Positions 4,508 through 21,837 of a DNA stretch of 27,901 nt are shown piece after piece; the stretch's first letter is position 1; the number at the start of each line of letters is the position of its first letter. The notes under the pieces were generated by a model. That model was not told the DNA's origin. It searched no databases and worked only from the letters and a program-made list of their open reading frames with translations. Position numbers and translations under genes: made by a program. Source of the stretch: a virus (taxonomy: Duplodnaviria; Heunggongvirae; Uroviricota; Caudoviricetes). The stretch lies in the IMG/VR virus record IMGVR_UViG_2684622620_000012. The stretch is one strand, 5' to 3'.

Positions 4508-4795
4508 TTACTGACTACAATTGTTCTTTTTTTGGTATTTCCTGAATGCCTCACCATTGGGCTGATGTAATCCCATCCCGACATGTGCCCGGCTGATGGT
4601 TTTGCGCATCTCCCCGAAATTATCCTGCCTTGCTGGTGGGCGTGCTGCCTTGTGGATACATTCCGCGCGACGTTTTGCCGCCTGTTCCCGTGCCTTGTCA
4701 TCATTCGCCAGCATGATGACCTCAGCCCACCGAGCCGCCGCTCTCCGGTACAGACCACGCGCTTCCAGTGCTTCCGCTTTGCTGTCGTGAATCAT
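4508..4795 (-). CDS. PerC-like transcriptional regulator (tentative), 95 aa
   Basis: N-terminal SKAEALEARGLYRRAAARWAEVIM resembles the conserved N-terminus of PerC/Pch-type regulators as I recall it; start overlaps the FinO-like stop (ATGA). Confidence 0.45.
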   Translation of the reverse strand: MIHDSKAEALEARGLYRRAAARWAEVIMLANDDKAREQAAKRRAECIHKAARPPARQDNFGEMRKTISRAHVGMGLHQPNGEAFRKYQKKNNCSQ

Positions 4796-5370
4796 GCGCC
4801 TGTTTTCTCCTTTGCTGCCCGGCGCTGACGTTTGCGCTTCTCATTCAGCGCCACCAGCCGCGTTTCTGCGTCCTGTTGTTCCTGTGGTGTCACCTCGCCG
4901 CACGGCTGGCCTTTCAGGTCGTAGCGTACCCCACCAGCCATTAAGGCGCGGTAATAGCGCGGACACTGCGCATAAGATGCCAGCGTCGCACGTAATGCCC
5001 CTGGCCCGAATGCCAGCCCCCTGACGGCGAGATTCTGCATCAGGTCGTCAAATATTCCCACCTTAAGCGGCTTCGGTGCTTCCCGGTTGAATAATTCAGG
5101 CCACAACTCAGTAAGGCGGTTAACGCGCCTGCGATTTTTGCGCTGGCGTTTGGTCATATGCCGCCACGATGTCGCCCCTGTGAGCTTCTGCTGCGCTTTC
5201 TGGTTACCGAGCATCACTTTATGCGCCGATGGGGTTTTATCCTGCTCCTGTGCCGCCTGCGTCGTTTTCTGCGGCGTGCCGTAAATGCCTTTCGGTTTTC
5301 TGTTAATGGTCAGCTTAGTCATGCTTTGCCCCATCGTTTTTACTGATTGTTTCATGCCCGGTACTTTCAT
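4792..5370 (-). CDS. FinO/ProQ-domain RNA-binding protein with basic N-terminal extension, 192 aa
   Basis: C-terminal half (LTELWPELFN...PLKVGIFDDLMQNL...LRATLASYAQCPRYYRALMAGGVRYDLKGQPCGEV) aligns by eye with the ProQ N-terminal/FinO domain of E. coli ProQ. Start uncertain: no good SD at any in-frame ATG. Confidence 0.75.
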   Translation of the reverse strand: MKVPGMKQSVKTMGQSMTKLTINRKPKGIYGTPQKTTQAAQEQDKTPSAHKVMLGNQKAQQKLTGATSWRHMTKRQRKNRRRVNRLTELWPELFNREAPKPLKVGIFDDLMQNLAVRGLAFGPGALRATLASYAQCPRYYRALMAGGVRYDLKGQPCGEVTPQEQQDAETRLVALNEKRKRQRRAAKEKTGA

Positions 5371-5399
5371 CTACCATCAACGTCAAAACTACGAAACGG

Positions 5400-5674
5400 G
5401 ATGCATTCATATAGATGCGCTGAACGTATACTGCAATAATGGCTGGGTGGAAATCGACAAAAACATCGCCGAAAACGCCTAACGTGGTGTGGCAGTGGGC
5501 CGGAAAAACTGGTTGTTCGCAGGTTCCAACAGCGGTGGCGAACATACTGCGGTGCTGTACTTGCTGATCGGCACGTGCCGTCTGAACAAGGAGGAGCCAG
5601 AAAAATGGTTGCGTTACGTCATTGAGCATATCCCGGACTGGACGGCAAACCGGGTACGTGATCTGTTGTCCTAG
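5400..5674 (+). pseudogene. IS66-family transposase, C-terminal remnant with in-frame stop
   Basis: GWVEIDKNIAENA*RGVAVGRKNWLFAGSNSGGEHTAVLYLLIGTCRLN... matches the conserved IS66 TnpC C-terminus (EIDNN...GRKNWLF...); TAA at 5480-5482 interrupts the frame; only ~90 codons of a ~500 aa transposase are present. Confidence 0.65.
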
Positions 5675-5962
5675 AAAGCCGATCTAACCGGGCAATAAAT
5701 ATCAAAACGGTTTTGGCGAGCCGCTTGCATCTCAACAAAACAATTGATATTTAAATAATAAAAATACATACACTACAATAAGTTAAATTATGAGGTTATA
5801 TTGGGGATACTTCACATAAAGAGTTATGATGACCCCGGATAACTTTATCGAAAGTACCGATGATAATCTAAGTTAACAATGAGTTTCAGTTTTTCGATTC
5901 ATACATGACATGGCTTGCACTATGTAAGTGATTAATTATTAATATTATTTTACGCATAATCG

Positions 5963-5990
5963 AGAAGGGGGCGCTTAAGTACCCCCAAAC
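5963..5990. repeat. AAGGGGGCGCT + CTTAAGTACCCCCAAA motif, shared with the integrase upstream region
   Basis: AAGTACCCCCAA (5977-5988) recurs exactly at 16276-16287; CTTAAGTACCCC(C)AAA recurs inverted at 16299-16314; AAGGGGCGCT recurs at 16333-16342. Also forms a local hairpin (GGGGG...CCCCC) just 3' of the peptidase gene. Confidence 0.4.
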
Positions 5991-5992
5991 TT

Positions 5993-6889
5993 TTAGATAT
6001 GCCGAATAAAGGATTGGTTATTAGAGCCTTCAATAAGCTTAACTGTAGGAGTGTTGAAAAGGGTTTGTGTACAACAGTGATGTACTGTAAGAACTGCGTC
6101 CTGAAACTGGGGATGGTCTTCAAGCTGAGTGATCCGCAAACCTAATTCAATGGCTCTCTCTGCGTGGATATGCCGAGAATGATCCTTCGTATCCGTACGA
6201 TTGTTTAAGCTTTTGACAATCGCAGTGGCGAGTTCGCTACGCCGAGGTTCAGGTAAATCTTTAAGCATTCCATTTTTTAACCATTCAGTAACCAAATCAT
6301 CGGCAAGCTGAATAGCTTTGCTAGCTGTATCAAAAATGGTAGGTGGGTAGCGCGAGATGATTGTTTGCCAAATCGGGAGGCTGGAAGGTTCTTTTTGAAT
6401 GCTATCAATAGCATTTTTTAACTCTTCCAAAATACCATAAGCTGAAAGACCACCAAAGATATGAGGATCAAAAGGTCCGATACTTGAATGATGCCCCATT
6501 ACAATTTCTTTGCAGGCACACGCAATCATTGTTCCTGCAGACATGCTCATTTGAGGAACAATGGCCCGAATATCACCATTAAAAAGCTTTTTAAGGTAGT
6601 AAACCAGAGACTCAGCCGCAGTTATAGAACCACCAGGGGTATGCAAGAAAAGGTCTAAGCCTTTCGTTCTATCCATTCCGTTAACAACAGCCATGAAACC
6701 ATTTTTGTCATCATCATTGATGCTGACATGCTGATGATTACCGTTATGTAAAAAGTCTGTGTAGTAACATATTACGTTTCTATCAGTACTGTCACTCAAA
6801 GCTTTTATGTACTTACGGCGGACAATATCAAAGCGAGAATCGTCTTGGAGGCTTTGGATTTCCTCCAAGACTTGGGCCAGATTGGGCAT
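5993..6889 (-). CDS. ClpP/crotonase-fold serine peptidase (S49/SDH-like family), 298 aa
   Basis: [20 protein letters not shown]...[23 protein letters not shown] matches the TPGG...SAGT nucleophile region of ClpP/SppA/serine-dehydrogenase-type proteases; AAGGA sits 8 nt upstream of the ATG; AT-rich. Confidence 0.65.
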
Positions 6890-8280: not shown

Positions 8281-8680
8281 TTTTTTAATTCCTCACCTGC
8301 TGCGCAGTGAGAATTTATGAAGTTAATAACAATATGATTTTAAATATATTTTTAAGCACTCACTTTTTAATCCTTATATATACGCAAAAGTGAGGTAAAT
8401 AGTTAAGTTTTAGTTAATATCTTGCATGGTATGTTTTTTAACCTACCTGTTATTTTTATTACCTCATTTCTATTAACTCACCATTCCTCACTTTTGTTCC
8501 TCACTTTTTGTTATTCTTGTTCTGCTCCTCAGTCGTTTTCTTTATTGTTGTAATATGTTGTTTTGCAATGTTTTTTTAATTCCTCATTTTTTGATCTATA
8601 TACAGGTGAGAAAGTGAGGAAAACAGGGATGATTTTTAAATATTCCCTTCCCCCCTCACTTTTACGCTTCACTTTTTACA
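8281..8680. repeat. iteron-rich AT-rich region (more than 10 copies of TTCCTCACTTTT in both orientations), candidate origin
   Basis: Copies at about 8291, 8358, 8388 (inv), 8461, 8477, 8486, 8499, 8581, 8606-8620 (inv pair), 8653, 8668; exact 15-mer TTTTTTAATTCCTCA at 8281-8295 and 8573-8587; lies immediately 3' of the helicase gene. Confidence 0.6.
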
Positions 8681-10088
8681 GTGGGCGCACATCATCACCG
8701 TCAATAGCGATTACGCCGTCACCTTCCAGCTTGTACAGCCAGCGCCGGAAGTTTTTCATCTCATACCCCAGCTTTTTCATGTCATCGCGCAACAACGGAA
8801 TAGTACATTTATCTCCGCGTTGCGTGCGTGAACGAATACAACCCCATAGTGCGGCGTGATTCTCCGTCTTGTTCCCAGCTTCCTCGATGCGCTCCAGTTC
8901 AACCGGCGGACGGGGCTTATCCTCCAGCACCAGCGACGTGATTAACTCCCCGCCCTCATCCTTGAAAAGCTCAACCTCGCGCAAATCGCAAGCCATTTCT
9001 TTCAGTTCCTCCGCATCCTTCATCTTGGTACATGCGATAACCAGGGCTTCACTGCCTGCACCTTCACGGCGTATCCGGTATTCTGCATCCAGTGCTGCAC
9101 GAAACGCACTGGAACCGCGCGCACCCTTTGTTTCATCCTTGCCGGAATGGTGAATTACCAGCACTGTAGCGCCTGTACGTCGTTTCAGTTCGTCACATCC
9201 ATGGACAAATGCCCCCATATCCCGCGCATCATTTTCATCGCTGCCACCAAAGCAACGCGCCAGAGTATCCAGAATAATCATGCGTACAGGTTTACCCGTT
9301 TCCTGCTCAACCTGTCGGGCAGCAATAACCATTTCATCAACATCACCCGGTGCGGCCGGAAAAATTGGACGATTTACCAGGTATAGATTTTTCACCTGCT
9401 CACTGTTCACCAGTTCCCATGCCTTGATACGACGAGGAACACCGATCCCGCCCTCACCAACGACATACATCACCGCACCATGTACAACCCTGCGACCTCC
9501 CCACGGGATACCGGTAGCAACATGACACGCCCACGAACACGCAAGGAACGACTTATAAGAACCGCTCGCACCGTATGTGCTACATAGCGAATTAGCCGGA
9601 ATCACGCCCTTAACTACATAGCTAAGCTGTGAATCATATCCTTCCGATCCAATGCTCATTGGTAGCGTGGTTTTTCGCTGGCTGTATTGCTCGTCAGTAA
9701 GTATTTCCCCGCGCTCAGCCTGTTCGCGGATCCGTTGCAGGTAGTCGTGCCAGTTCTCCGGCTCCCCGTCGGTGATACCTTTGTATAATTTCGCCTCCTG
9801 TACGCCAGCCAGCGCCAGCTTTTCAGCGATAGCATTGATCTGGATTGGTTCGATCTCCCCCGCGAGATAGACACGCGCAAAGCGGCGTTCATCGTCGACA
9901 ATGCGGATATTCGCCAGGTCTGCCAGTTGCTTTGGCCCCAGGTAAACAGGTGGTACGTTATCGCCGTGTTTTCGTCCTTCGCTTTCAATCCAGTGTTGAG
10001 CATGGGCGTAAGCATCCGTCCCGGCAAAAATGATTACCTCGGTGAATTTATCCTTCGGCTGATATTTTAAATTCGGTGCGTTTTTCAC
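8676..10088 (-). CDS. RecA-like NTPase, RepA/DnaB-type replicative helicase (AAA_25-like), 470 aa
   Basis: P-loop YGASGSYKS, Walker B-like MIILDTLARCF, and VLVIHHSGKDETKGARGSSAF typical of RepA/DnaB-family helicases; GTG start with GGGAGGT 6 nt upstream, overlapping the upstream stop. Confidence 0.7.
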   Translation of the reverse strand: MKNAPNLKYQPKDKFTEVIIFAGTDAYAHAQHWIESEGRKHGDNVPPVYLGPKQLADLANIRIVDDERRFARVYLAGEIEPIQINAIAEKLALAGVQEAKLYKGITDGEPENWHDYLQRIREQAERGEILTDEQYSQRKTTLPMSIGSEGYDSQLSYVVKGVIPANSLCSTYGASGSYKSFLACSWACHVATGIPWGGRRVVHGAVMYVVGEGGIGVPRRIKAWELVNSEQVKNLYLVNRPIFPAAPGDVDEMVIAARQVEQETGKPVRMIILDTLARCFGGSDENDARDMGAFVHGCDELKRRTGATVLVIHHSGKDETKGARGSSAFRAALDAEYRIRREGAGSEALVIACTKMKDAEELKEMACDLREVELFKDEGGELITSLVLEDKPRPPVELERIEEAGNKTENHAALWGCIRSRTQRGDKCTIPLLRDDMKKLGYEMKNFRRWLYKLEGDGVIAIDGDDVRPL

Positions 10089-10375
10089 TTCTTACCTCCC
10101 GCAACCAACATTGCCCGGATTTTTTTAATATTCGTGGCTGCACGTCTCGCCACCGCCTGTTGTTTGTTTTCAACCAGAATAAAATCACGCTCAAACTGAC
10201 GGCGCGGCATTACGCAGTCATATTCGTAAGCCTCACGGCGGTAGGTGATATTGCCTGGCGTAACGTGACGAATAACCACTCGTCCCCCACGTCTGGTGTC
10301 GCGGTAAATATCTCCGTGTCTGATTTCAGGCCGAGAGAGACCGCTGGCAGTAAAGCCAGAATTTTTCTTTTTCAT
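10085..10375 (-). CDS. hypothetical basic protein, 96 aa
   Basis: Member of a chain of tightly packed minus-strand small genes; stop overlaps the helicase GTG start. Confidence 0.5.
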   Translation of the reverse strand: MKKKNSGFTASGLSRPEIRHGDIYRDTRRGGRVVIRHVTPGNITYRREAYEYDCVMPRRQFERDFILVENKQQAVARRAATNIKKIRAMLVAGGKK

Positions 10376-10379
10376 GGTT

Positions 10380-10580
10380 TTATTTTCCTGTCAGCAGTTC
10401 CGGTTTTATTTCCGCACGAATACAAAGTTCAGAAAAAAATTCAGGAGAACCAACAATCTCATTACTTTTCAGTCGGCATTGTGATTTCACTTTCCCTTTA
10501 TCTAGGTAAACCAGTACGCGTCCGGTGAAATCATCTGGCACATTAAGCACTACGGGTACATGCGCTTCATGATTATGCAT
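10380..10580 (-). CDS. hypothetical protein, 66 aa
   Basis: Start overlaps the upstream gene stop; no recognised motif. Confidence 0.45.
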   Translation of the reverse strand: MHNHEAHVPVVLNVPDDFTGRVLVYLDKGKVKSQCRLKSNEIVGSPEFFSELCIRAEIKPELLTGK

Positions 10581-10806
10581 GGCTTACATCCTCCGTGAAT
10601 TTTCTTCTGTAACGCGTCTCTGCCACATATTCCGCATAGTCTGACGCAATACTAAGAATCATTTCACCCTCTGACTTGTAGCCACTGGTATTGATAAGAA
10701 AATATGCAGCTTTCATCATGTCAGCAACGCTCAACAATGCGCCCGCTGCATCTTCCTGTGCGCCATCAAATTCCCGTTTCAGGGAATTAAAACGATCATC
10801 ACGCAT
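10573..10806 (-). CDS. hypothetical acidic protein, 77 aa
   Basis: Start overlaps the upstream stop; no recognised motif. Confidence 0.45.
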   Translation of the reverse strand: MRDDRFNSLKREFDGAQEDAAGALLSVADMMKAAYFLINTSGYKSEGEMILSIASDYAEYVAETRYRRKFTEDVSHA

Positions 10807-11164
10807 GTTTACCCCCCTGAATGACCTGATAACCGCAACTGGTCAGCAACTCGATAAATTCCGGCAGTGTGCCGAAACAGCAATCATCACGCAGCCGTTC
10901 GCAGGATACCTCGACGCCGTTTTCGTAGTGACTCACCATACGTCCGGTAAAATGCAGATCATCATCGTGATGACTCGTTGACGGCTTAATCAGTCGCGCA
11001 CGTTCCGCCAGTTCCAGCAATGCTTCAACGCTTCCGGCAATTGCACCATCCGGCAGGTGATAATTACGCACTATGCGCCCGTTCTCCACATTGACCAGCA
11101 ACTGCCCGGTAAATTTCTCGTCAAACTGAATGCTGTTAAGGTCAGAAATTGACAGGTTATGCAT
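10799..11164 (-). CDS. hypothetical protein, about 121 aa
   Basis: ATG at 11164 with AGGAGG upstream, 2 nt after the upstream stop; the track ORF extends to 11182 without an RBS. Confidence 0.5.
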   Translation of the reverse strand: MHNLSISDLNSIQFDEKFTGQLLVNVENGRIVRNYHLPDGAIAGSVEALLELAERARLIKPSTSHHDDDLHFTGRMVSHYENGVEVSCERLRDDCCFGTLPEFIELLTSCGYQVIQGGKHA

Positions 11165-11381
11165 AGTGCACCTCCTGCACATCAGCCATGATAATTTTTC
11201 CGGCCTTATCCAGTGCCTGATCGGCTTTTAGCTGCACAAATGCTAAATAATGGAAGATGCATTCTGATTCTCTGGCTGCGTGTTTATGCGCCACACCAGC
11301 GATAGCAGAAATCTCAATAAGTGAATCCATCAGCGTTTTGATAGTGTCTACCGCTGCATCAGGCCATGTTGCATTACACAT
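11157..11381 (-). CDS. hypothetical protein, 74 aa
   Basis: ATG at 11381 overlaps the stop of the upstream gene. Confidence 0.45.
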   Translation of the reverse strand: MCNATWPDAAVDTIKTLMDSLIEISAIAGVAHKHAARESECIFHYLAFVQLKADQALDKAGKIIMADVQEVHYA

Positions 11382-11739
11382 GCTCCACCTCCTGGCGAAT
11401 ACGGGCAGTGAATACCATCACGCAGCCATCAGGAGATTGCTGGCGTGCTTCCTGTTCGCTGGTGGCCTCGATGTGAATCACGCGCGGTTGTGCCGTACTC
11501 AGGGCGATAAAACGCCATATAAAATTGTTTTCGCATTTCTGAATAAACAGCGTGTTTTCTTCGCGCCCTTTCCATGTTGCCGAGATATAGCCCATGTCAT
11601 TGAGCATCTTGCAGGCATCAACCAGCGTATCGGCGGCTACGTGTACAGTGTTTTTACCGTCAGCCATGCAATCACGGTGCACCGCCAGGAAGGTGTATAT
11701 AAATTTAGGGTGAGTTTGAGTATGCTGTGTTCCAGCCAT
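11374..11739 (-). CDS. hypothetical protein, 121 aa, first gene of the early operon
   Basis: ATG at 11739 with GAGGT 7 nt upstream; the track ORF runs on upstream to 12831 in the same frame, but that upstream part looks non-coding or frameshifted. Confidence 0.5.
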   Translation of the reverse strand: MAGTQHTQTHPKFIYTFLAVHRDCMADGKNTVHVAADTLVDACKMLNDMGYISATWKGREENTLFIQKCENNFIWRFIALSTAQPRVIHIEATSEQEARQQSPDGCVMVFTARIRQEVEHV

Positions 11740-11813
11740 AATCGTTACCTCATTTAACGGTTTGGTTAGACGCCCTGCATGTGTTGCGAGCACTGCGGGG
11801 CGTTGCTCTTTTA

Positions 11814-11861
11814 GGTGTATTTCACCTTTGCTTTTTAATTTACTTACTGGTGAAATACACT
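11814..11861. promoter_or_regulatory. operator-like inverted repeat GGTGTATTTCACC ... GGTGAAATACAC(T) in a divergent promoter region
   Basis: 12/13 bp inverted repeat separated by 22 bp, between the early operon start (11739) and the divergent RHH gene (11927); TATACT -10-like hexamer at 11891-11896. Confidence 0.5.
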
Positions 11862-11926
11862 TCAAGCCTTTTTTTATCATTTTTTTTGCGTATACTGACA
11901 TACACCAATTTTTAGGAGATCCAGAA

Positions 11927-12106
11927 ATGGCAACTGGTGCAAAGAACGCAAAATCACAAATGACAACTGTCAGAATCCCACATGAAGTAATGGATGATAT
12001 TGAGCAACTTAAAGAACCTGGCGAAAGTACCGCTGGTTTTTTAGTTACTGCTGCAAAAGGCGAGATCAAACGCCGCCAGCGCCGCAAGGCCAAAGAACAG
12101 GAGTAA
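11927..12106 (+). CDS. small ribbon-helix-helix-like regulator, 59 aa
   Basis: AGGAGAT SD 6 nt upstream of the ATG; MTTVRIPHEVMDDIEQL fits an RHH beta-strand plus helix; divergent from the early operon; basic C-terminal tail. Confidence 0.5.
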   Translation: MATGAKNAKSQMTTVRIPHEVMDDIEQLKEPGESTAGFLVTAAKGEIKRRQRRKAKEQE

Positions 12107-12823
12107 CCATCACCAGCGCCGTGGTGTGAGGGACTACGGTGCATCGTTTTACAGGGCAGCGCCATGACCAACAAAGAATCAACCAATACACCATCACCGG
12201 CACGGAAAAGACAGCGCAGAAAGATAGCGTACGAGCATGAGTCAAACAGATTCGCGCCCTGTGCGTTTATCCTTGAGAAATTCCTTAAAGAGTACAGGCG
12301 CACAAAAATGGGATCGCATACCTGGAAAACATCGCGGCATGGCGATGTTAAAGAGCAGGAATAGCCCACCAGCAAGCCAGCATATTCACCATAATGACCC
12401 TCAGTTAAACATAGAGTCATTGGTGCAAAGCTGACACATTGCCCACCAGCCGCAAATCTGGCATTGTTGGCGATGCGTTCAAGTATGTAGCTTTCCCACT
12501 GGCGGCCCTCTGCGGTCGCCTTTGTTTTATCCAGAACGAAATCAGACATCAGATTGATCAGCACCTGGCGACCTGACAAAATCGCATCAGTCGCGCCACC
12601 AGCAAAATTTTTTGCTTTTCGGACAGTGTGATCAACGACATTTTGCAGCAAAATATTCTGCATTTCTGGCGTGCTGTAGTAACGGTGATCAGCGCCTTCA
12701 CTCTGTGCGACCACAACGCTATAATCTGCCTCGTAGACAGTAAGCAATATGGCGCAGTAGGCTATTCGTTCACAAAGGCGCTCCGGCAACGGGGCGCTTT
12801 CTCTTTTTGTAACGGTCAGAGCG

Positions 12824-13624
12824 TTACACATGGCTGTTTTCCTCCATGCGACGGGCTAACCAACGCTGCGAAAGACGAATTAATTCAGCCTTCCGCTGGT
12901 GGTAGTCCTGGCCTAACTCAATCAGCGTGATATTGCTCTGCTCAAGGTAAGAAAGGTGCTCAAGCTGCAACGTGCTCATGTGGTCGCGTGGTTCGCCTGT
13001 AATGCCGTTCGCCAGTGCCCACTGTTTTGCAGTCATGCCACCCAGCACGATACGCGCCAGCATGCTCGCTTCCGTGGTGTAGTGGTGCTGGAGTGTGTTT
13101 TTACCCAGTTCAGCCCGGTACGCCTCCAGCGCGGCACACATTGGCTTAAAGTAGCTGGCAACTGTGATACGGGCTTTCAGTTCCCGGCGTAACGCTGCGG
13201 AACGAACAGGCGCAACCTTGTGTAGCTCCTCCTCGCATTTGATAAAGTACTGGCGAACGGCGCGGCCCTGTTCGGTACGTTCGACCATCGCCAGTTCTTT
13301 CGCCATGTTCACTGTGATGATGTACTCAAGAGCGGTTTGCTGGCGAGATTTTGCGCTCACCGGATCGGGTCGGCTCAAATATTCAACAACCTCATAATCC
13401 ACGCCTTCCGTGAACCCGTATTCTTCAATGCGCCCCTTGATCCACGAACGGAAAACGCGCCCTACACCTAACGCCTTATGTAACGCTCTGGCGCTAACAA
13501 TAGTGGTTTCACTCCCGCCAATAACGCCGGAAATAATCGGGATAATTTCGCCGAAATTTTGCAGATTCTGGTTTTCAGGCCGAACGAAGCCCCGCCCCTG
13601 TACGGGCGTTTTTGGAAATTTCAT
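12824..13624 (-). CDS. phage antirepressor-like protein (AntA-type N-terminal domain), 266 aa
   Basis: TTIVSARALHKALGVGRVFRSWIKGRIEEYGFTEGVDYEV resembles the AntA/AntB antirepressor N-terminal domain; downstream of alpA on the same strand. Confidence 0.6.
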   Translation of the reverse strand: MKFPKTPVQGRGFVRPENQNLQNFGEIIPIISGVIGGSETTIVSARALHKALGVGRVFRSWIKGRIEEYGFTEGVDYEVVEYLSRPDPVSAKSRQQTALEYIITVNMAKELAMVERTEQGRAVRQYFIKCEEELHKVAPVRSAALRRELKARITVASYFKPMCAALEAYRAELGKNTLQHHYTTEASMLARIVLGGMTAKQWALANGITGEPRDHMSTLQLEHLSYLEQSNITLIELGQDYHQRKAELIRLSQRWLARRMEENSHV

Positions 13625-13701
13625 AAAAACTCCTGCTATCGAATTAAGTTACTTTTATTTGCTGGTGGATAGCTGGGGGCAATAGCCCCGTAGCCATTTA
13701 A

Positions 13702-13899
13702 TCAGGTAGCTGTTCCGCGTGATTCCGCAATACGCTGATTAATCCACTCGTCAATTTCACTCTCAACGAAAGCAATAGCTCGCGAGCCAATTTTAACTGA
13801 TGCAGGAAATTTACCTTGCCCCATAAGGCGATAAATCCATGCCTTGCTATATCCAGTTCTACGCTGAACTTCTGTTAAACGAATAAGCGTATTTGACAT
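13702..13899 (-). CDS. alpA: AlpA-family transcriptional regulator, 65 aa
   Basis: LIRLTEVQRRTGYSKAWIYRLMGQGKFPASVKIGSRAIAFVESEIDEWI is a close match to the AlpA (CP4-57 regulatory protein) HTH signature. Confidence 0.85.
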   Translation of the reverse strand: MSNTLIRLTEVQRRTGYSKAWIYRLMGQGKFPASVKIGSRAIAFVESEIDEWINQRIAESRGTAT

Positions 13900-14093
13900 A
13901 TATTTACCTCATAACGTCTACTCAATTTGACGAGGTAATCATGGCACAGAAATAACGAATATTTTCATACCCTCAGGCCTAATGGTTACCGGAAGGAAAT
14001 TAACCCTAAGGGTGATGGTAAAATTGACGGGGAAGATAAAAAAATACCCTCAGGGTAACAGTAAATCACCCTCAGGGTATGCGGTATGGTGCG

Positions 14094-14891: not shown

Positions 14892-15019
14892 ACGCACACC
14901 TCAGCGTCCTCTACTGTAGTGGCTGTACCAGTCCGTCGAGGTGTACGGATTTTCGGGAGCGACCCTAGACACAGCCTTTTCTTTCGTCGCTCAAAGTCTA
15001 CTACTGTATACGCAACCAG

Positions 15020-16234
15020 TCATCCACATTTTCCGAACTTGCCATGCACCACGTTACCGCCATGTTCGAGCGAATCCATATAGTCGGCGTACCACTGGAG
15101 CATCTCGCGCCGCCCGTCCAGATATTGCGCATGATTGTACGTGCCACGAATTGAGTTCTTATCAACGTGTGCAAGCTGCGTTTCTATCCACGCGGTGTTA
15201 TAGCCCTGCTCATGTAAAATCGTGCTCATGGTGTGCCGGAATCCATGACCAGTAACCTTTCCGTTATAGCCGATGCGTTTAAATACTTGGTTTATGCTAG
15301 CCTCGCTCATTGTTTTCCTTGGATCATTGCGGCCGGGAAACATAAGCGGATAATTACCAGTTAATTCTTTAATCTGCCCAATAAGAGAAAGAGCCTGCTT
15401 AGACAAAGGCACCACATGAGGGCGACGCATTTTCATCCGTGAAGCAGGTATCTCCCAGATAGCCTTGTTGAGATCGATTTCATCCCATAATGCACCGCGC
15501 AGTTCGCCAGTTCGCAAACCAGTGATAATCAGTAGACGAGCCGCCATAACAACCAATGCACTTCCTGAGTAACTGGACAATGCCTTGAAAAAATCAGGCA
15601 ATTCTTTGGCTGTGAGGAAAGGATAATGATTAGATTCATGGCCTTGCATCGCGCTAGTAAGATCTGGGGCAGGGTTATACTCTGCGCGACCAGTGACTAT
15701 TGCATAGCGGAAAACTTCCCCGCACCGCTGCCTCACTTTTTTGGCTTTTTCTGTAGCACCGCGCCCCTCGATGCGTCGCAGCACATTCAGAAGTTCAAGT
15801 GGTTTGATTTCGGCAATTGGTTTTTTGCCAATGTAAGGGAACACATCTTTGTTGAAGGCTTCGAGGATATCTGAAGCATAACCAGCAGACCATTTTTTTA
15901 ATTTGCTGCTGTGCCACTCAAGGGCAATATCTTTGAAGGTATTGTTTAACTGCGTTTCCCGGGCAATCTTTTCCTCTCGTTTCGCTTCCATCGGATCGAT
16001 ACCCCCAGCGATACCCCTTTTAGCTTCTTCACGTTTTGCACGAGCATCAGCCAAGGTAACTTCAGGATACACACCTAGTGCTAACAGCTTCTCTTTACCA
16101 GCTACACGATATTTAAAGCGCCAGTATTTTCCTCCACTAGGTTTTACCAGGAGATACAGACCACCACCATCAGCCAGCTTGTAAGCCTTCTCTTTTGGCT
16201 TGGCAGTGTCTATTTGACGGGCATTGAGTTTCAC
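15020..16234 (-). CDS. int: tyrosine integrase, P4-type (DUF4102 N-terminus plus phage integrase catalytic domain), 404 aa
   Basis: N-terminal KLNARQIDTAKPKEKAYKLADGGGLYLLVKPSGGKYWRFKYR is the hallmark of P4-family integrases; C-terminal HGFRHT...LAH...RGTY contains the catalytic residues; GTG start with GGAGGT upstream. Confidence 0.9.
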   Translation of the reverse strand: MKLNARQIDTAKPKEKAYKLADGGGLYLLVKPSGGKYWRFKYRVAGKEKLLALGVYPEVTLADARAKREEAKRGIAGGIDPMEAKREEKIARETQLNNTFKDIALEWHSSKLKKWSAGYASDILEAFNKDVFPYIGKKPIAEIKPLELLNVLRRIEGRGATEKAKKVRQRCGEVFRYAIVTGRAEYNPAPDLTSAMQGHESNHYPFLTAKELPDFFKALSSYSGSALVVMAARLLIITGLRTGELRGALWDEIDLNKAIWEIPASRMKMRRPHVVPLSKQALSLIGQIKELTGNYPLMFPGRNDPRKTMSEASINQVFKRIGYNGKVTGHGFRHTMSTILHEQGYNTAWIETQLAHVDKNSIRGTYNHAQYLDGRREMLQWYADYMDSLEHGGNVVHGKFGKCG

Positions 16235-16342: not shown

Positions 16343-16562
16343 AACATGCGGATTATAAGAGGTTTTTAAATACTTGAGTAGACTTGGGGAGACGTTAGAA
16401 TGGTGCCGATAATAGGAGTAAAACACTCGATTAATCTCGTGTTAATGCCATCACCTACGACCATTACTAATTGATTGAATCTTATAGAAAAAATCATCAT
16501 TTTCTATGCGTTACAATCAATTTTCACATTACAAACGCTCCGACACTTTAGCCGGGGAGTTT

Positions 16563-17840
16563 ATGAGATACAAGCCCAATCAATACATAATCTGTGATTC
16601 TTACGGTAACTACTATTTAAGGATCACGCTGCCTGTGTATATGCAGCCCTTTTTTGAAGGAAAAAGGACGTTTGTCAGAAGTCTACACACAAGTAATCTT
16701 CGTGTTGCACGTAGAAAGCGTGATCAGATTGCAGATGAATACCATTGTCTACGGGAGAGTGTCGCCCCTGTAAACAGCACAATAGAGAACACGCTGGAAC
16801 TGTTACGCAGTAAGGCTAAATACGCCAAAACAGCTACCAGAATGCAAGATACAGCGTCTTCGTGTCCGTCATTGCTTAAAATTCTTGAAATCTACCTGAC
16901 AATTAACAGCACGAAGAAGAAGCCAGCCACTTTAGCTAAAGCAAGAAAAGCGGTAGAGATGTTTCTCTCCTACCGTAAAAAGCCTGATATTGCATTGCAA
17001 GATGTGAGCCGCACCACTGTTACAGGCTGGATTGAACACATGCAAAAAACCCTTTCACAACAATCAATTGCAAATTATATCAGCCCAATGGCCCAGCTAT
17101 GGGAATTAGCTTCATCACGTTACCACGATGCGCCAGAAAGGGCGCTCTCCCCCTGGCGAGGGCATAGGCTTGATGTGGCACAAAGTAGAGAGAGCTACGA
17201 GGCATTTTCTAACAAAGAGCTATTGCAGGTGTTGCAAGTATTTTCCGGTAATTCAGCAGAAAACAAAGAAATGATGGCTTTGTGTCTTATCGGTGCTTAT
17301 ACAGGTATGCGGATCAATGAGATAGCAAGTCTCACAATAGACGATGTGAAAGAGATCGAAGGTGTGCTGTGTTTTGAAATCACACAGGGAAAAACGAAAG
17401 CTGCGGCACGTGTTGTGCCTGTACATAGCCTTATCACTCCGTTGGTGTTGTCGCTGCGTGAAAAGCCTCATAATGGCTTTTTGTTCTATCACGCCAGCAT
17501 TACAGAGCGTGTAGATGGTAAACGTTCCACGTGGCACACGCAGAGATTTACAAGAGCTAAACGAAAGGCTTTAGGGGAAAAGGGAACAGAAAGGAAGGTG
17601 TTTCATTCTCTGAGACACGGAGTAGCACAGCTTCTTGATCGAAATCAAATTCCAGAAGACAGGATCGCCCTTCTCCTGGGCCATACACGCGGTAAAACGG
17701 AGACATTCCGCACATATAGCAAGAATGCAGCTTCTCCAGTAGAGCTTAAAAAATATATTGAGCTTCTACGCTACCCTGAAATAGAGAAAGGCTTATCAAT
17801 CAATAAAAAATCAAATTTAAGGCGTAAAACAACGCCATAG
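16563..17840 (+). CDS. tyrosine recombinase/integrase (second, divergent), about 425 aa
   Basis: C-terminal catalytic signature FHSLRHGVAQLL ... LLGHTRG ... TFRTYSK (R, H-x-x-R, H, Y); ATG at 16563 preceded by GGGGAG; the track ATG at 16506 lacks an SD. AT-rich. Confidence 0.8.
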   Translation: MRYKPNQYIICDSYGNYYLRITLPVYMQPFFEGKRTFVRSLHTSNLRVARRKRDQIADEYHCLRESVAPVNSTIENTLELLRSKAKYAKTATRMQDTASSCPSLLKILEIYLTINSTKKKPATLAKARKAVEMFLSYRKKPDIALQDVSRTTVTGWIEHMQKTLSQQSIANYISPMAQLWELASSRYHDAPERALSPWRGHRLDVAQSRESYEAFSNKELLQVLQVFSGNSAENKEMMALCLIGAYTGMRINEIASLTIDDVKEIEGVLCFEITQGKTKAAARVVPVHSLITPLVLSLREKPHNGFLFYHASITERVDGKRSTWHTQRFTRAKRKALGEKGTERKVFHSLRHGVAQLLDRNQIPEDRIALLLGHTRGKTETFRTYSKNAASPVELKKYIELLRYPEIEKGLSINKKSNLRRKTTP

Positions 17841-17847
17841 ACGTAAT

Positions 17848-17880
17848 AAAGAGGCTTCAACATAGATTGGTAGCCTCTTT
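17848..17880. terminator. bidirectional hairpin AAAGAGGCT...AGCCTCTTT between convergent genes
   Basis: Perfect 9 bp inverted repeat with 15 nt loop and flanking A/T runs, in the 80 bp gap between the recombinase stop (17840) and the 17922..18635 gene stop. Confidence 0.55.
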
Positions 17881-17921
17881 TATAATTACATCGTTACAGA
17901 GCGTTTTAGAGGCGTTTACGG

Positions 17922-18635
17922 CTATTCCTGTTTAAAGGCAGGAGTAATAGTGTCTTCACCTTCACTACTTGATTTTTCAGTGTTAACACGTTTTTTCATA
18001 TTCGCCCCGATGTTCTTAGATGGCTGTGTTTTGATAGCTACAGTGTTTACAGTGCCATACGAAACGAGCCTGATCTGCTCAAAGCTAAGATCAAATACCA
18101 GGGATTCGCTTGCCTCTTCTGTGTATTCGATGCCTGTTAAAACAACGTTCTCAAAAGTTTTATTTTCTGTAACAAGAAGAAAAGGCTGTCTACTGTCCAT
18201 AATCTGATTCAGGTAGTCTATAGCTAATGATCTTCTGTTCCCGTTCACCCCTGCACTCTTTAACAAGCCAGGATCGCTTTTAATCGGTGTTTCAGTGATC
18301 CTACCTTTAAGAGAAAACTTATTGTTTTTAATTTGAACGTGATCAGACACAGTAGCACCATTTTCTACAGGATAGCTAGTAACATCTGCTTGACGTTTTA
18401 CGTTCACATCGTCTACACTGTCAAAAGCCAGTGCCATATAATTTTCATAAACGTCATTGCCAGAAGAAGCCAAGCCACTGGTAACAATAGCAAATCCGTT
18501 CTCTCCTTTTGTTGTATTAGCTTTGCTATTTTCGTTTTTTGTAGAGTTTATATCTTGTTCTGCTTTGTAAACAGCCTGAACGTGTTGTTCTGGAGTATTT
18601 GCTGCACGTATGGTTAAAATCCCGGCGGTCGCCAT
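17922..18635 (-). CDS. hypothetical protein, 237 aa (possible virion/tail-associated protein)
   Basis: Immediately downstream of the tape-measure-like gene; AAGGAAA SD; no motif recognised. Confidence 0.5.
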   Translation of the reverse strand: MATAGILTIRAANTPEQHVQAVYKAEQDINSTKNENSKANTTKGENGFAIVTSGLASSGNDVYENYMALAFDSVDDVNVKRQADVTSYPVENGATVSDHVQIKNNKFSLKGRITETPIKSDPGLLKSAGVNGNRRSLAIDYLNQIMDSRQPFLLVTENKTFENVVLTGIEYTEEASESLVFDLSFEQIRLVSYGTVNTVAIKTQPSKNIGANMKKRVNTEKSSSEGEDTITPAFKQE

Positions 18636-18669
18636 AATAATAATTTTCCTTGTAATGTTATGGCGGGAA

Positions 18670-20508
18670 TTACCCGCCGTTGGATTGTCCTGATAAGCTG
18701 GTTAATGTTAATGATTTCAAGAAGCTATCCCGACTTGCTCTTGCTGTAAAATCCACATAATCGCTTAATCTTGATGTGTCAGAATTAATAGTAAGAGGAA
18801 CCTCTGTTACCACTTCAAATGTAGGATTCAGATTAAACACAGGAGATAAATTATAAGCCGGAGTTGTCATTGCAAGATTATTTAAAGCACCCTGTTTGAG
18901 ATTGGTTATCGGTGCTTCATTGACTGACATTTTTACATCTGACACAGAAGATTTATCATCGAAAAGCAATCCCTTAATCGTGTTAAAGAGAGAATGACTA
19001 TTATCAGGTGTAGTTGTTGCAGTGCCAGCGCCTTTATATTGGTCAGGAACGAGATTAGAAAGATTCTGTTTCATTCCTTCATTGCTTAATGGCGGTGCAT
19101 CACCTAAATTTTTCTGAATAGCCTCTGTCTTATCATCATTACGATTAAACCAGTTTACAATCTTCATAATAGCTTCAAAGAGACTTCCTGTAGCTTCTCC
19201 CAGCTTCGTAAAATACGGAGTGAGATTAGAAAGGTTTTTCATAAACTCTTCCGTTACTTTTGGATCAAGAGATTTCATAAAGCCGTCTACGAATGCTACT
19301 TGTCTTGCATCAGAAAGCTGTGAAAGCTGTCTGTTTAGTTCTCTGAATTTAACGATAGATTCTTGCTGTGTTTCTGTTAGCCATTTTCCAGAGGCTTTTT
19401 GCTGGTTAATACTTTCTTGTACATCTTTAACGGAACGTTGCCAATATTTTGACGTAAGCATCAAATCATCGCCCAGGTCTTCTAAACGTTGTCCAATTTG
19501 AGAATCTGAAAACCCTTTTTTCATCATTCCATTAACAGCCTTAGAAATTAATCCAGCCGGATTATCAGCAAATTTTTTAAGGTCGCTTTTGTTAATAACA
19601 CCGATGTTTAGAAGTTCATTAATAGCGTTATCACCGCCTTTCCATTCAGATTTTCCGGTTTTCTTGTCTTTCACCAATTCAGCTTCACTGTAGGATTTTG
19701 CGGCACGTTCCCTAACATCTTTCATCTGATCCAGGTATTTTCTAGCCCCTTGATCACCCATCATAGAGTCAACGCCGTTTTTATACGCCCATTCTGTAAT
19801 ATTATACATCTGGTTAACGTCTACACCGCCAAGCCTTGCACGTTGGATCAATTCCCCTTGTGTCTCAGCATTGGCAAAACTATTAGCAACGAATTCGTTT
19901 GCTTTACTCATAGCCATCACGCCAGCAGCCGCTGTAGCGCCTCCAAATAACAGAGCGCCCATAGTGGCGGCATTCCCTGATCCTCCCTTAACAGGTGCAT
20001 AGGCTTTAGCGTGAGCGTTACGATTGCCATTAATCTTACGTTGTTGTTGTTGTAAGCGTTTCATCTGGCTATTCATACGTGCAAGCGAGATAGCCCCTTG
20101 CTCATATTGTTTTGCTATCTCTCTAGCCTGTGCAATAGCTTTATATTGTTCCGCTACAGAGAGGCGGTGCATTGCACTAATGCTTGATCCAACGTCTAAC
20201 AGTTTTAAGGCTGCCTTCTCACTGCGTGCTGCTATTTGTGCCTGTTGCCTTGCCTGTGCTCTTGCTGCGGCAGCTTGTGCTCTTTGATTCTGTTTTTCGG
20301 TTTTAGCTTTCTGTTGAGCAATCTTGTCTACTTCGTTTTGTGCTTTCTTATAGCCTTTAGTGACATTATCAAACCTTAATTTAGCTGGCTTGATATTTTC
20401 TGCGAATTCCTTTAAGCCTGTAATAGAGTCTTTCGCTTTTTTCAAGCTGTCTTTATCTACACTAAATGTAACTGTGTTCTTAATTTTAGAAGTGTTAATT
20501 TCTAACAT
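18670..20508 (-). CDS. tape-measure-like protein, 612 aa (long coiled coils plus Gly/Ala-rich hydrophobic segment)
   Basis: N-terminal Q/A/K/R-rich coiled-coil region and GALLFGGATAAAGVMAMS segment resemble phage tail tape-measure proteins; AAGGGGA SD; assignment is by composition only. Confidence 0.45.
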   Translation of the reverse strand: MLEINTSKIKNTVTFSVDKDSLKKAKDSITGLKEFAENIKPAKLRFDNVTKGYKKAQNEVDKIAQQKAKTEKQNQRAQAAAARAQARQQAQIAARSEKAALKLLDVGSSISAMHRLSVAEQYKAIAQAREIAKQYEQGAISLARMNSQMKRLQQQQRKINGNRNAHAKAYAPVKGGSGNAATMGALLFGGATAAAGVMAMSKANEFVANSFANAETQGELIQRARLGGVDVNQMYNITEWAYKNGVDSMMGDQGARKYLDQMKDVRERAAKSYSEAELVKDKKTGKSEWKGGDNAINELLNIGVINKSDLKKFADNPAGLISKAVNGMMKKGFSDSQIGQRLEDLGDDLMLTSKYWQRSVKDVQESINQQKASGKWLTETQQESIVKFRELNRQLSQLSDARQVAFVDGFMKSLDPKVTEEFMKNLSNLTPYFTKLGEATGSLFEAIMKIVNWFNRNDDKTEAIQKNLGDAPPLSNEGMKQNLSNLVPDQYKGAGTATTTPDNSHSLFNTIKGLLFDDKSSVSDVKMSVNEAPITNLKQGALNNLAMTTPAYNLSPVFNLNPTFEVVTEVPLTINSDTSRLSDYVDFTARASRDSFLKSLTLTSLSGQSNGG

Positions 20509-20519
20509 TTAAAATCCCC

Positions 20520-20723
20520 TTAATCATTTTTACCACCTTCTTTACTTAAGAAATGGTGTAGAGCCTGATCAATACTCTCGTTTAATCTGAACATACGGGC
20601 TTTTACTCCTTCATATGGAACATCTAGGAGAGAACAGAGATATTTCAGATTTAACAAGCCTCTAGAATCATTAGCATCTAAATGTACGTGTACACCATTT
20701 TTTGATTTCAAAATCACTTCCAT
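20520..20723 (-). CDS. hypothetical small protein, 67 aa
   Basis: Strong SD GAGGTGA upstream of the ATG; 11 bp before the tape-measure-like gene. Confidence 0.5.
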   Translation of the reverse strand: MEVILKSKNGVHVHLDANDSRGLLNLKYLCSLLDVPYEGVKARMFRLNESIDQALHHFLSKEGGKND

Positions 20724-20753
20724 ATTTTAATCACCTCTCAAAATTTAAAAAAA

Positions 20754-20779
20754 TAAAAAAAAAGGCGAAGCGTGAATAC
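20754..20779 (-). terminator. hairpin followed by a T9 run (minus-strand sense) after the 342 aa gene
   Basis: GCGTG-AATA-CACGC core stem within GGCGAAGCGTG...CGCCACGCC; on the minus strand it is followed by TTTTTTTTTATTTTTTT. Confidence 0.4.
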
Positions 20780-20808
20780 ACGCCACGCCTCTAATACACG
20801 TTAAAATA

Positions 20809-21837
20809 TTATTTAACTGTGATCTGCACAGAGAAGCCAACACCGTGGTTTACCACCATCTGGCTATTCTCTGTAACAACGTTAACAGCATCACCACGAG
20901 AAGATTCATAGCTATAGCTGTACACCTCAGCAGGAGCGGCATTAATCAGTTCAAAGGTGCTGGAAGCCGCCCCATAGATGGCCTGGTAGACGTTAGAGCA
21001 TTTAGCGAATTTAGGCACGGCTACAGCGTCAGCGGTCATATGTGCAAGGTGTAGCGGATCTACCAGTTTAACAACATCAATGTTAGTTCCTGGAATAGTG
21101 AACGCTGTCACCCCTGGCAGCAGGTCACGACGCTGATACACAACGTTCCCTTCTTCCAGTGGGCTTACATACTGGAATGCGTTTGCCATACCCGCAGAGA
21201 ATCGAATTGCAGAGAAGGCTTCCGGCTTACAGAAAACAACAATACGCTCTACAGCAGCCGCCTGGCTTTGTGCTTTCTCGATAATGTCAGTAGCAATCTG
21301 ATCAAATTCTTTAAAAATCTTCGTGGTGTCAGTGCTGGAGGCGTTAACAGTGGCTTTCATAGGTGTCACATTAAACAGCTTGCCCCACTCGATAAGAACA
21401 TCATCAGTTTTCGGGGTGTAGGTGCGACCACTAAACAGAGAAGCAGCCAATACGCTCTCTTTTGTACGCTGATACGCTACGTGGTGTTTAGCAACATAGT
21501 CAGCATAGATATCAGTGAGTGTTTCCTGAAAATCAGTGCCAGGCTTACGCTTGCCTTGCACGTCCTGCGGTTTGATCAGGTCTTGCCTTAAAAAGTACGG
21601 AATTTCAATAAGATATTCTTTACCTTGTTCTCGCTTAGTAACGTTGTGTTCAGAAGAGAAACGAGAGGTTTCTTTGTTGAACAGAGATTCGTTGCTTTCG
21701 ACAAGCTGGGAAACAGCTACTTTATGAGATGTAACCCCTACAGAATCCGTAAAATCAAGAGTAGAGAGCAGATAGTTTCTAGTGCTATGAGCCTGGAAAA
21801 GCGGAGCTAAATCAACGTAATCATTACCTAGAATCAT
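20809..21837 (-). CDS. phage structural-like protein, 342 aa (major capsid or major tail candidate)
   Basis: Size and position (after two small genes, before a terminator and the tape-measure-like gene) fit a major structural protein; no diagnostic motif recognised, so capsid versus tail is unresolved. Confidence 0.4.
   Translation of the reverse strand: MILGNDYVDLAPLFQAHSTRNYLLSTLDFTDSVGVTSHKVAVSQLVESNESLFNKETSRFSSEHNVTKREQGKEYLIEIPYFLRQDLIKPQDVQGKRKPGTDFQETLTDIYADYVAKHHVAYQRTKESVLAASLFSGRTYTPKTDDVLIEWGKLFNVTPMKATVNASSTDTTKIFKEFDQIATDIIEKAQSQAAAVERIVVFCKPEAFSAIRFSAGMANAFQYVSPLEEGNVVYQRRDLLPGVTAFTIPGTNIDVVKLVDPLHLAHMTADAVAVPKFAKCSNVYQAIYGAASSTFELINAAPAEVYSYSYESSRGDAVNVVTENSQMVVNHGVGFSVQITVK

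Follow-up and report, generated by a model that had tools for sequence, protein, structure and literature searches.

How is the early operon of a phage-inducible chromosomal island (PICI) kept silent, and how is it released? In Gram-negative PICIs, control has been described only through AlpA, the known activator of these islands, and a repressor has not been identified, its existence being stated as unclear (PMC6092414). The question is posed by a 27,901-nt stretch of viral DNA (IMG/VR record IMGVR_UViG_2684622620_000012, Caudoviricetes; hereafter the window, to which coordinates refer), where six small minus-strand genes run into a helicase gene and are separated from a divergent gene for a 59-residue protein, ylcI, by an intergenic region of 187 bp (11740-11926). 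From its sequence, we assign the region to an Escherichia coli PICI-type satellite, as its switch and early/replication operon. Control of this operon is, rather likely in our judgement, exerted by a switch of three layers: a YlcI repressor, an antisense RNA and a read-through frame that spans both.

The gene ylcI (11927-12106, plus strand) encodes a member of the YlcI/YnfO family, which has no assigned function. The protein scores 64 bits with NF041551 (DUF3950) over residues 9-50, the cut-off being 30 (E = 9e-18), and 179 close relatives bear the YlcI/YnfO name. An AlphaFold model built with 20 homologues, at a predicted local distance difference test score (pLDDT) of 87, displays an extended segment (residues 11-18) and two helices, which would conform to the β-strand, helix, helix order of the ribbon-helix-helix (RHH) fold of about 45 residues. 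Upstream of ylcI, the intergenic region holds three 11-bp boxes of the form GTG-N5-CAC, namely O1 (GTGTATTTCAC, 11815-11825), O2 (GTGAAATACAC, 11850-11860) and O3 (CTGACATACAC, 11895-11905). When the 187 bp were shuffled 5000 times, three [GC]TG-N5-CAC boxes arose only once. The original prediction of a repressor-operator switch was centred on an inverted repeat (11814-11826 and 11849-11861), which is complementary at 12 of 13 positions, extends to 17 nt at 88% (11810-11826/11849-11865) and was equalled by a 13-mer repeat in only 2 of 1000 shuffles. This repeat consists of O1 plus O2. As all three boxes are direct repeats in many relatives, inverted symmetry is not the rule; the repeat is real, but the palindromic operator is a special case of a three-box array, whose third member (O3) had been missed. 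The coordinates, the sizes of the open reading frames (ORFs), the 187-bp spacer and the repeat itself all proved accurate, and the idea of a repressor and its operator is supported by the NF041551 match and by the covariation described below; an antisense RNA and a read-through frame within the same 187 bp had escaped notice.

A scan of one genome per species recovered 77 related loci (given L numbers) from Enterobacterales, Gilliamella and Pasteurellaceae, nearly all of which have AlpA and an integrase to the right and a divergent operon with an Icd-like start to the left. Relative to the ylcI ATG of these relatives, O2 is fixed at -77, O3 lies at -32 and O1 at either -112 or -100. In 51 of 60 loci, the N5 of O2 differs from that of O3 by no more than one mismatch; between loci with different proteins, this holds for 66 of 1593 pairs. 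The mutual information between YlcI residues 11-15 and the N5 is 3.32 bits, against a maximum of 2.32 over 5000 permutations, a statistic that overstates independence because the loci share ancestry. Box class (12 in all) is predicted best by residues 14 and 12 of YlcI, each invariant in 9 of the 10 multi-member classes, whereas R16 is invariant throughout. Reading of bases by alternate residues of one strand is the recognition mode of RHH proteins, and comparative inference suggests that alternate β-strand side chains of YlcI read the repeated half-sites in this way.

Two sets of loci reveal that the boxes follow YlcI. One nearly identical Icd-like subtype pairs with three YlcI/box classes (L007/8, L032/64 and L062). 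In addition, L085 and L086 share with the window a backbone of 96-100% identity (except for the single-copy Icd-like gene of L086), whereas their ylcI-plus-operator cassette has been swapped, with 67% and about 50% identity to that of the window. Linkage alone does not account for the coupling of YlcI to its boxes. Altogether, the comparative evidence is strong, and we consider it highly probable that YlcI and the GTG-N5-CAC boxes constitute a repressor-operator pair with about 12 specificity classes.

The boxes are positioned around two divergent predicted promoters. The leftward promoter, P_L (11837-11865, minus strand), comprises a -35 hexamer TTGAAG (complement of 11860-11865), a 17-nt spacer that contains O2 and a -10 hexamer TAAATT (complement of 11837-11842). 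Of 51 loci, 42 have a TTGAC/TTGAA hexamer immediately adjoining O2, followed in 40 of them by TAnnnT at 16-18 nt. With these positions, O2 falls within the P_L spacer and O1 on or immediately beyond the -10, at about +5 to +15 in the window. The ylcI promoter has a nearly invariant -10, TATACT (11891-11896, plus strand), that is overlapped by O3. Such a geometry fits repression of the Icd-like operon plus autoregulation of ylcI. A different reading is that YlcI binds its boxes but only autoregulates its own gene, or serves as an activator or a partition-type binder, with the operon left to AlpA and the RNA alone. In its favor, O3 is the only box that overlaps a well-conserved promoter element, P_L is predicted from consensus hexamers, and an island of E. 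coli O157:H7 has the same operon without YlcI; against it, O2 sits in the spacer abutting the hexamer in those 42 loci, O1 covers the -10 or directly follows it at either spacing (-112 and -100), which is the classic geometry of repression, and three boxes across divergent promoters are the usual layout of an immunity switch. We regard this reading as quite improbable, and retain operon repression with autoregulation as the function proposed for the boxes.

Between the Icd-like start codon and O1 lies a segment of about 90 nt that is conserved in all loci; a nucleotide search with the whole region against phages gave matches solely in this leader. When 53 sequences were aligned, the fold obtained was a pair of hairpins, with 97.3% of the cells paired and compensatory changes in 14 of 19 pairs. 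The covariation score is 0.471, compared to at most 0.11 for slid controls. Strand analysis of the alignment found G·U in 104 cells and A·C in 4, and the plus strand pairs better in 52 of the 53 sequences; moreover, a U-rich tail follows the hairpin on the plus strand only. This asymmetry, the better pairing and the tail indicate that an RNA structure has been selected on the plus strand. The fold of the window agrees, at -35.3 kcal/mol (z = -4.9) for the plus and -21.9 kcal/mol (z = -1.75) for the minus strand. The predicted RNA of about 78 nt (11734-11812, plus strand) would start inside codon 2 of the Icd-like gene, and end at hairpin 1 (11769-11804), which precedes the U-rich tail. It is complementary to the Icd-like start codon, ribosome-binding site and 5′ untranslated region, and the loop of hairpin 2 (11734-11767) presents an anti-Shine-Dalgarno CCUC (11748-11754). 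A candidate promoter (11698-11726, plus strand) is located within Icd-like codons 5-7, with -35 TATAAA (11698-11703) and -10 TATGCT (11721-11726). In the 53 loci, a TAnnCT -10 stands ten nt upstream of the start-codon complement (first T in 53/53, A in 52/53, final T in 53/53), and it is retained even where the overlapped codons encode other residues.

A covariance model built from the alignment, R1, finds held-out loci at 57-86 bits and also matches the O157:H7 island, which has no ylcI, and the phages mEp460 and Morganella IME1369. Rfam searches (the window at gathering thresholds and 9900-14000 at E ≤ 10) found no C4 (RF01695), IsrK (RF01394), sar or other family over the switch; apart from the int-alpA motif in another part of the window, matches were at chance level, and the only hint for the RNA was R1162, with 20 bits against a gathering threshold of 55 (E = 3.2) and on the wrong strand. 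We conclude that a plus-strand cis-antisense RNA of about 78 nt, forming its own family outside Rfam, is probably present in satellites and two phages. In the two phages, mEp460_ev081 (L079:3046-3137) and Morganella IME1369_01 (L080:2831-2922), the element copy retains only 14 Icd-like codons, and about 100 nt downstream follows a 449-residue PD-T7-1 anti-phage defence gene (L079:3244-4593 and L080:3029-4378; PADLOC E = 4e-157).

The plus-strand hairpins could be explained in another way, as a terminator or insulator for ylcI, or as the leader of a longer plus transcript that reads into ylcI or the phage defence gene. The arrangement in mEp460 and IME1369, where the element precedes a plus-strand PD-T7-1, speaks for this explanation, as do the position of the island element upstream of ylcI on the same strand and the weak -35. 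However, there is no upstream plus-strand gene whose transcript needs terminating, and the O157:H7 island retains the RNA though no plus-strand gene follows. In addition, the TAnnCT is invariant, always 10 nt from the start codon, although the coding sequences differ, and hairpin 2 retains the anti-Shine-Dalgarno in its loop while its stem shows compensatory changes. A terminator or leader is thus judged improbable, and the cis-antisense RNA remains the preferred interpretation of these hairpins.

The third layer is a stop-free, eta-like frame of 485 codons (11374-12831, minus strand). Its ATG overlaps the antA stop (ATGTGTAA), and the frame runs antisense to a 66-residue ORF (12164-12364), ylcI, the operators and the leader before it joins the Icd-like gene in frame, so that 372 codons upstream of that gene are free of stops. 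An in-frame open run of at least 122 codons is found in 37 of 53 loci (median 179), compared to a median of 4 in control frames. Of the minus frames, one and only one crosses the intergenic segment without a stop in 47 of 53 loci, the others having 1-12 stops. This open frame always continues the ylcI-antisense frame whose third codon positions coincide with those of ylcI, and which is open in 62 of 62 distinct sequences, with about 24 of 62 expected from random synonymous codons. The L085/L086 cassette differs from that of the window by indels in multiples of three. In loci without an ant gene, the long frame begins 8-11 nt before the alpA stop. Such frames in L004, L005, L012, L013, L025, L034 and others open with a conserved "M..KTKAALQGRQC" about 600-700 nt to the right of ylcI, their ATG lying 8-11 nt before the alpA stop (e.g. 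ATGCCAGATAA); the conservation points to either a coupling site or an overlapping nucleotide motif. Within the window, the 66-residue ORF mentioned above (plus strand; phrog_21027, E = 1e-32) follows a terminator-like hairpin directly 3′ of ylcI (12116-12142, plus strand; consensus scan only) and is missing in the E. ruysiae relative L002. Being contained entirely in the open minus-strand frame, it may represent a shadow ORF.

The frame is maintained, whereas its product appears not to be. In the parts that share no plus-strand gene, the ratio of non-synonymous to synonymous substitution rates (dN/dS) is 1.0-1.4. The N-terminal 155 codons carry 13 non-synonymous against 3 synonymous changes, the intergenic part has about 50% nucleotide identity, and the N-terminal parts are unrelated between loci. 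The idea that the frame is the gene of a functional protein of Eta/Bro type, Icd-like in its C-terminal domain, to which ylcI, the boxes and the RNA would be secondary or mere shadows, can draw on annotation. The long form is annotated or called in hundreds of genomes at 435-533 residues, 435 in the case of the protein labelled "host cell division inhibitor Icd-like protein" by the Prokaryotic Genome Annotation Pipeline (PGAP); the frame is open in nearly all loci, and the profiles phrog_6928 and phrog_29966 take in the translated leader. PGAP is in conflict here, since the same DNA is annotated either as the 435-residue Icd-like protein or as YlcI/YnfO plus a short Icd-like protein. Opposed to a functional long protein are the dN/dS values, the unrelated N-terminal parts, the loss of register with the Icd-like gene in some loci, the confident RHH model of YlcI with its residue-to-box covariation, and the RNA structure selected on the plus strand. 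A long protein as the selected product is therefore very improbable. By analogy with satellite P4 (see below), we favor instead a role for translation itself, and propose, tentatively and with about as much to be said against as for it, that read-through of the long frame may override the switch.

Combining the three layers gives the following model. As an RHH repressor, YlcI would contact the three boxes through β-strand residues 12, 14 and 16. Occupancy of O3, over the -10/+1 of the ylcI promoter, would give autoregulation, whereas O2 in the P_L spacer and O1 just past the P_L -10 would shut the operon of the Icd-like protein, four small proteins, DUF4222 protein and helicase. The antisense RNA, transcribed from the promoter in Icd-like codons 5-7 and ending at its hairpin terminator, would pair with the ribosome-binding site and 5′ untranslated region of leaky P_L transcripts. 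Because overlapping stop and start codons chain the cistrons, a block of the first should starve the downstream cistrons as far as the helicase. In Gram-negative PICIs, the helper phage raises AlpA (PMC6092414). Upon such induction, alpA-antA transcripts would carry ribosomes through the long frame across the switch, preventing termination; the translating ribosomes would remove the antisense RNA as well as structures around the Icd-like start, and transcription from upstream would collide head-on with that of ylcI, so that the replication genes are turned on. We infer this order of events from the arrangement of the parts. A further notion, which we consider unlikely, is that the RNA acts in trans, in which case phages and competing satellites may silence each other's replication operons, with the roughly 12 YlcI/box classes providing element-specific immunity; many satellites have an almost identical Icd-like leader, the target of the RNA, and the phages mEp460 and Morganella IME1369 contain the RNA gene as a stand-alone copy beside PD-T7-1, the Icd-like ORF being deleted.

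Several points, beside the shared descent of the loci, weigh against this model, for which the support is computational throughout. The RHH-like nature of YlcI, which had been claimed at the outset, agrees with the predicted fold, but no Pfam RHH family was matched at E < 0.1, a PDB sequence search with the YlcI profile returned nothing at E < 0.7, and a Foldseek search against the PDB was not significant (best E = 3.1). The ylcI promoter has no recognisable -35, and that of the antisense promoter (TATAAA) is weak. In the O157:H7 relative (L082), the RNA and the Icd-like operon occur without ylcI, which makes YlcI an optional module rather than a universal PICI repressor. YlcI of E. coli K-12 lies near cos in DLP12, without the three-box layout. 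As to the frame, 6 of 53 loci have stops in every minus frame of the intergenic segment, and in 9-10 loci the open frame is, unusually, out of register with the Icd-like gene, although such loci agree with the notion that translation matters and its product does not. The ratio of non-synonymous to synonymous polymorphism (pN/pS) is 0.35 for ylcI against 0.45 for its antisense frame, which cannot separate the two because their third codon positions coincide.

The operon under the proposed control starts with the Icd-like gene (11374-11739, minus strand), which encodes 121 residues and matches NF033153 with 79 bits against a cut-off of 25. The match covers residues 73-116, with a weaker second repeat at the N-terminal end, and the gene is a tandem duplication of the 58-66-residue form typical of most relatives, L086 having the single copy. 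A short Icd-like gene opens the operon in nearly all of the 77 related loci. The Icd-like name, which recalls the inhibition of host cell division by Icd of phage P1, is given by homology only. Downstream on the same strand are genes for a 74-residue protein with no known function (11157-11381; phrog_5146, E = 1.5e-48; dN/dS 0.20-0.37), a 121-residue protein, or 127 residues from an upstream ATG (10799-11164; phrog_340 in two matched stretches, E = 5e-30), a 77-residue protein with no known function (10573-10806; phrog_24341, E = 6e-49; dN/dS 0.19-0.46 against diverged copies), a 66-residue protein with a single phrog_340 domain copy (10380-10580; E = 2e-20; dN/dS 0.06-0.26) and a 96-residue DUF4222 protein (10085-10375; PF13973, E = 1.4e-19; phrog_285; dN/dS 0.23-0.43). 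The 66-residue and 121-residue phrog_340 proteins are paralogues that both start with MHN at a ATGCATAA stop/start junction; in the latter, the phrog_340 domain is internally duplicated in tandem, and the variants of 66-97 residues in databases resemble recombinants between the repeats. The last gene leads to a RepA-family replicative helicase of 470 residues (8676-10088, minus strand; PF13481 AAA_25, E = 3e-44; phrog_2850, E = 4e-220), annotated in RefSeq as "helicase RepA family protein". In related E. coli islands, the DUF4222 gene likewise lies directly upstream of a helicase or primase. A DUF4222 gene was also observed in the early-left region of a lambdoid prophage at icd of E. coli CFT073 (L081:5192-5431), adjoining an excisionase remnant; the family is therefore common to satellites and helper-type phages.

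The original prediction had the six genes overlapping by their start and stop codons all the way into the helicase. The sequence has four 8-nt overlaps, in order ATGTGTAA, ATGCATAA, ATGCGTGA and ATGCATAA, and a helicase GTG that overlaps the DUF4222 stop by 4 nt (GTGA); owing to a 4-nt gap (10376-10379), overlap holds at five of the six junctions and fails at one. The six ORFs are genuine genes under purifying selection: each of the six proteins matches a PHROG family, and dN/dS against five diverged relatives is mostly 0.04-0.46 (0.04-0.45 for the Icd-like gene), with a single outlier of 0.91 for the 77-residue gene against a nearly identical L002 copy, at 9 substitutions. The expected conservation and coding signal are thus present, whereas the statement that none of the six carries a recognisable motif does not hold for the Icd-like and DUF4222 proteins.

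That several of these proteins might be effectors of helper-phage interference or host takeover, as was also suggested, finds some encouragement in the Icd-like, cell-division inhibitor domain of the first gene, in the conservation, purifying selection and satellite-borne setting of the genes, and in the DUF4222 gene of the lambdoid prophage. However, searches of Pfam, NCBIfam, PHROGs and PADLOC matched none of the six to Psu, Sid, Delta, Ppi/Rpp or any other named interference or defence family, and the genes belong to the replication zone, coupled to the helicase/primase. Known PICI interference genes lie downstream of replication (PMC6092414). The single structure attempted, an AlphaFold model of the 121-residue phrog_340 protein, was unusable at a pLDDT of 56. 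With no such match and only this poor model, the interference idea remains a guess, and the takeover role is suggested solely by the Icd-like name. We consider an effector function unlikely for these genes, which we read as members of the early/replication operon.

The surroundings of the operon match the layout of a Gram-negative PICI (Fillol-Salom 2018), described as four zones of Integration-Bro-Replication-Late (Tommasini 2023; PMC10111431). The sequence from 8600 to 13000 is 100% identical to E. coli chromosomes, such as that of strain APEC20/16, and all island genes except one or two are on the minus strand. The integrase gene (15020-16234, minus strand) is followed by an int-alpA RNA motif (14908-14975, minus strand; Rfam RF02996, 45.5 bits against a gathering threshold of 35.8) between it and the next island gene. 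A 267-residue protein with no known function is listed between this RNA and the AlpA-family regulator (13702-13899, minus strand; RefSeq annotation, with PF05930 on the identical layout of L085 and L086). Next comes an AntA/AntB-type antirepressor (12824-13624, minus strand; PF08346, E = 2.4e-23), the upstream partner of the long frame. The integrase and alpA thus share one orientation and are succeeded by a Bro/Ant zone, a replication zone and accessory genes. To the left of the helicase, the cargo includes an SDH/ClpP-like serine proteinase (5993-6889, minus strand), a ProQ/FinO-family protein (4792-5370, minus strand) and a PerC-family regulator (cargo at 4792-6889, minus strand, and L001:1244-2842). 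APEC20/16, whose locus is identical, has a GapS1 defence gene immediately past the window edge. Especially similar in layout is EcCIMP1, which contains an integrase, AlpA, an antirepressor, a primase and PerC (PMC11773190). No tRNA genes were found in the window. Past the island integrase, a second phage-like element is arranged back to back with the island (16506-21837), comprising a tyrosine integrase (16506-17840, plus strand) and, on the minus strand, a Dit-like tail protein (17922-18635), a 612-residue protein with no known function (18670-20508) and a major capsid protein E (20809-21837).

Each ingredient of the proposed switch is already of a known kind. Our literature search found no description of YlcI as a repressor or of an antisense RNA in PICIs, nor of this combination of components, the roughly 12 YlcI classes, the RNA family or a repressor gene antisense within a translated frame. 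Gram-negative PICIs are common and mobilise virulence and defence genes, and parts of the module match about one third of complete E. coli genomes. For a sizeable share of these islands, the analysis names a candidate repressor open to test, together with its operators and two apparent specificity residues, a likely route by which AlpA overrides the repressor and the RNA, and a probable function for the uncharacterised YlcI/YnfO (DUF3950) family. It also flags a systematic conflict in PGAP annotation. In addition, the naturally matched repressor/operator classes could be of use as orthogonal parts in synthetic biology.

Comparison with known immunity systems places the switch among several of them. 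The immI region of phage P22 encodes the RHH repressors Mnt and Arc, the antirepressor Ant and the antisense sar RNA. Both systems would have a small RHH repressor acting on operators between divergent promoters, a nearby antirepressor gene, and a short cis-antisense RNA over the ribosome-binding site of the controlled gene. They share no relationship at the sequence level: the island has a single repressor with three 11-bp GTG-N5-CAC boxes, its operon leads to replication genes and not to Ant, its antirepressor is upstream in the AlpA operon, and its RNA matches no Rfam family, sar included. In size and design, the RNA also resembles RNA-OUT of IS10, SymR of SymR/SymE and the countertranscript of the IncQ plasmid R1162, which are about 70-80 nt long with a promoter in the first target codons, complementary to the start codon and Shine-Dalgarno, built of a stable stem-loop plus terminator, and directed at a potentially toxic or replication-controlling target. 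The island RNA belongs to none of these families.

Stl proteins are large helix-turn-helix repressors that are inactivated by helper proteins. In Staphylococcus aureus pathogenicity islands and Gram-positive PICIs, the Stl-Str arrangement places a divergent repressor between the integrase side and the replication operon, at the same map position as ylcI (PMC6092414); by contrast, YlcI is a predicted RHH protein of 59 residues found in only a subset of islands. In the eta/kil region of satellite P4, as far as described in a paper that summarises Forti et al. 1999 (PMC10111431), the genes are nested, and translation from an upstream promoter prevents immunity-dependent termination. To the extent of that summary, three features are common to the island and P4. 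A long ORF is coupled by translation to the operon of an AlpA/Vis homologue and encloses the internal early promoter together with its regulatory sites; the short cistron that comes first is nested at the 3′ end of this ORF; and the immunity block is proposed to be overridden by translation of transcripts from the upstream promoter. The nested arrangement is found here in the ATG that overlaps the antA stop and in a long frame that, in 37 of 53 loci, continues into the Icd-like gene without a change of register. The two differ in the RNA. That of P4, the CI RNA (C4/IsrK family), is processed from the same strand and targets seqA/seqC, whereas the predicted island RNA is cis-antisense with no C4/IsrK match. 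To our knowledge, P4 has no protein repressor gene embedded opposite its long frame, as the island does. Finally, the imm434 and imm21 cassettes of lambdoid phages resemble the YlcI module in that the repressor gene and its operators are exchanged as one unit between near-identical backbones, with many specificity classes. Compared to these cassettes, the module is distinguished by a predicted RHH, not helix-turn-helix, repressor, by its box architecture and by its embedding within an open antisense frame.

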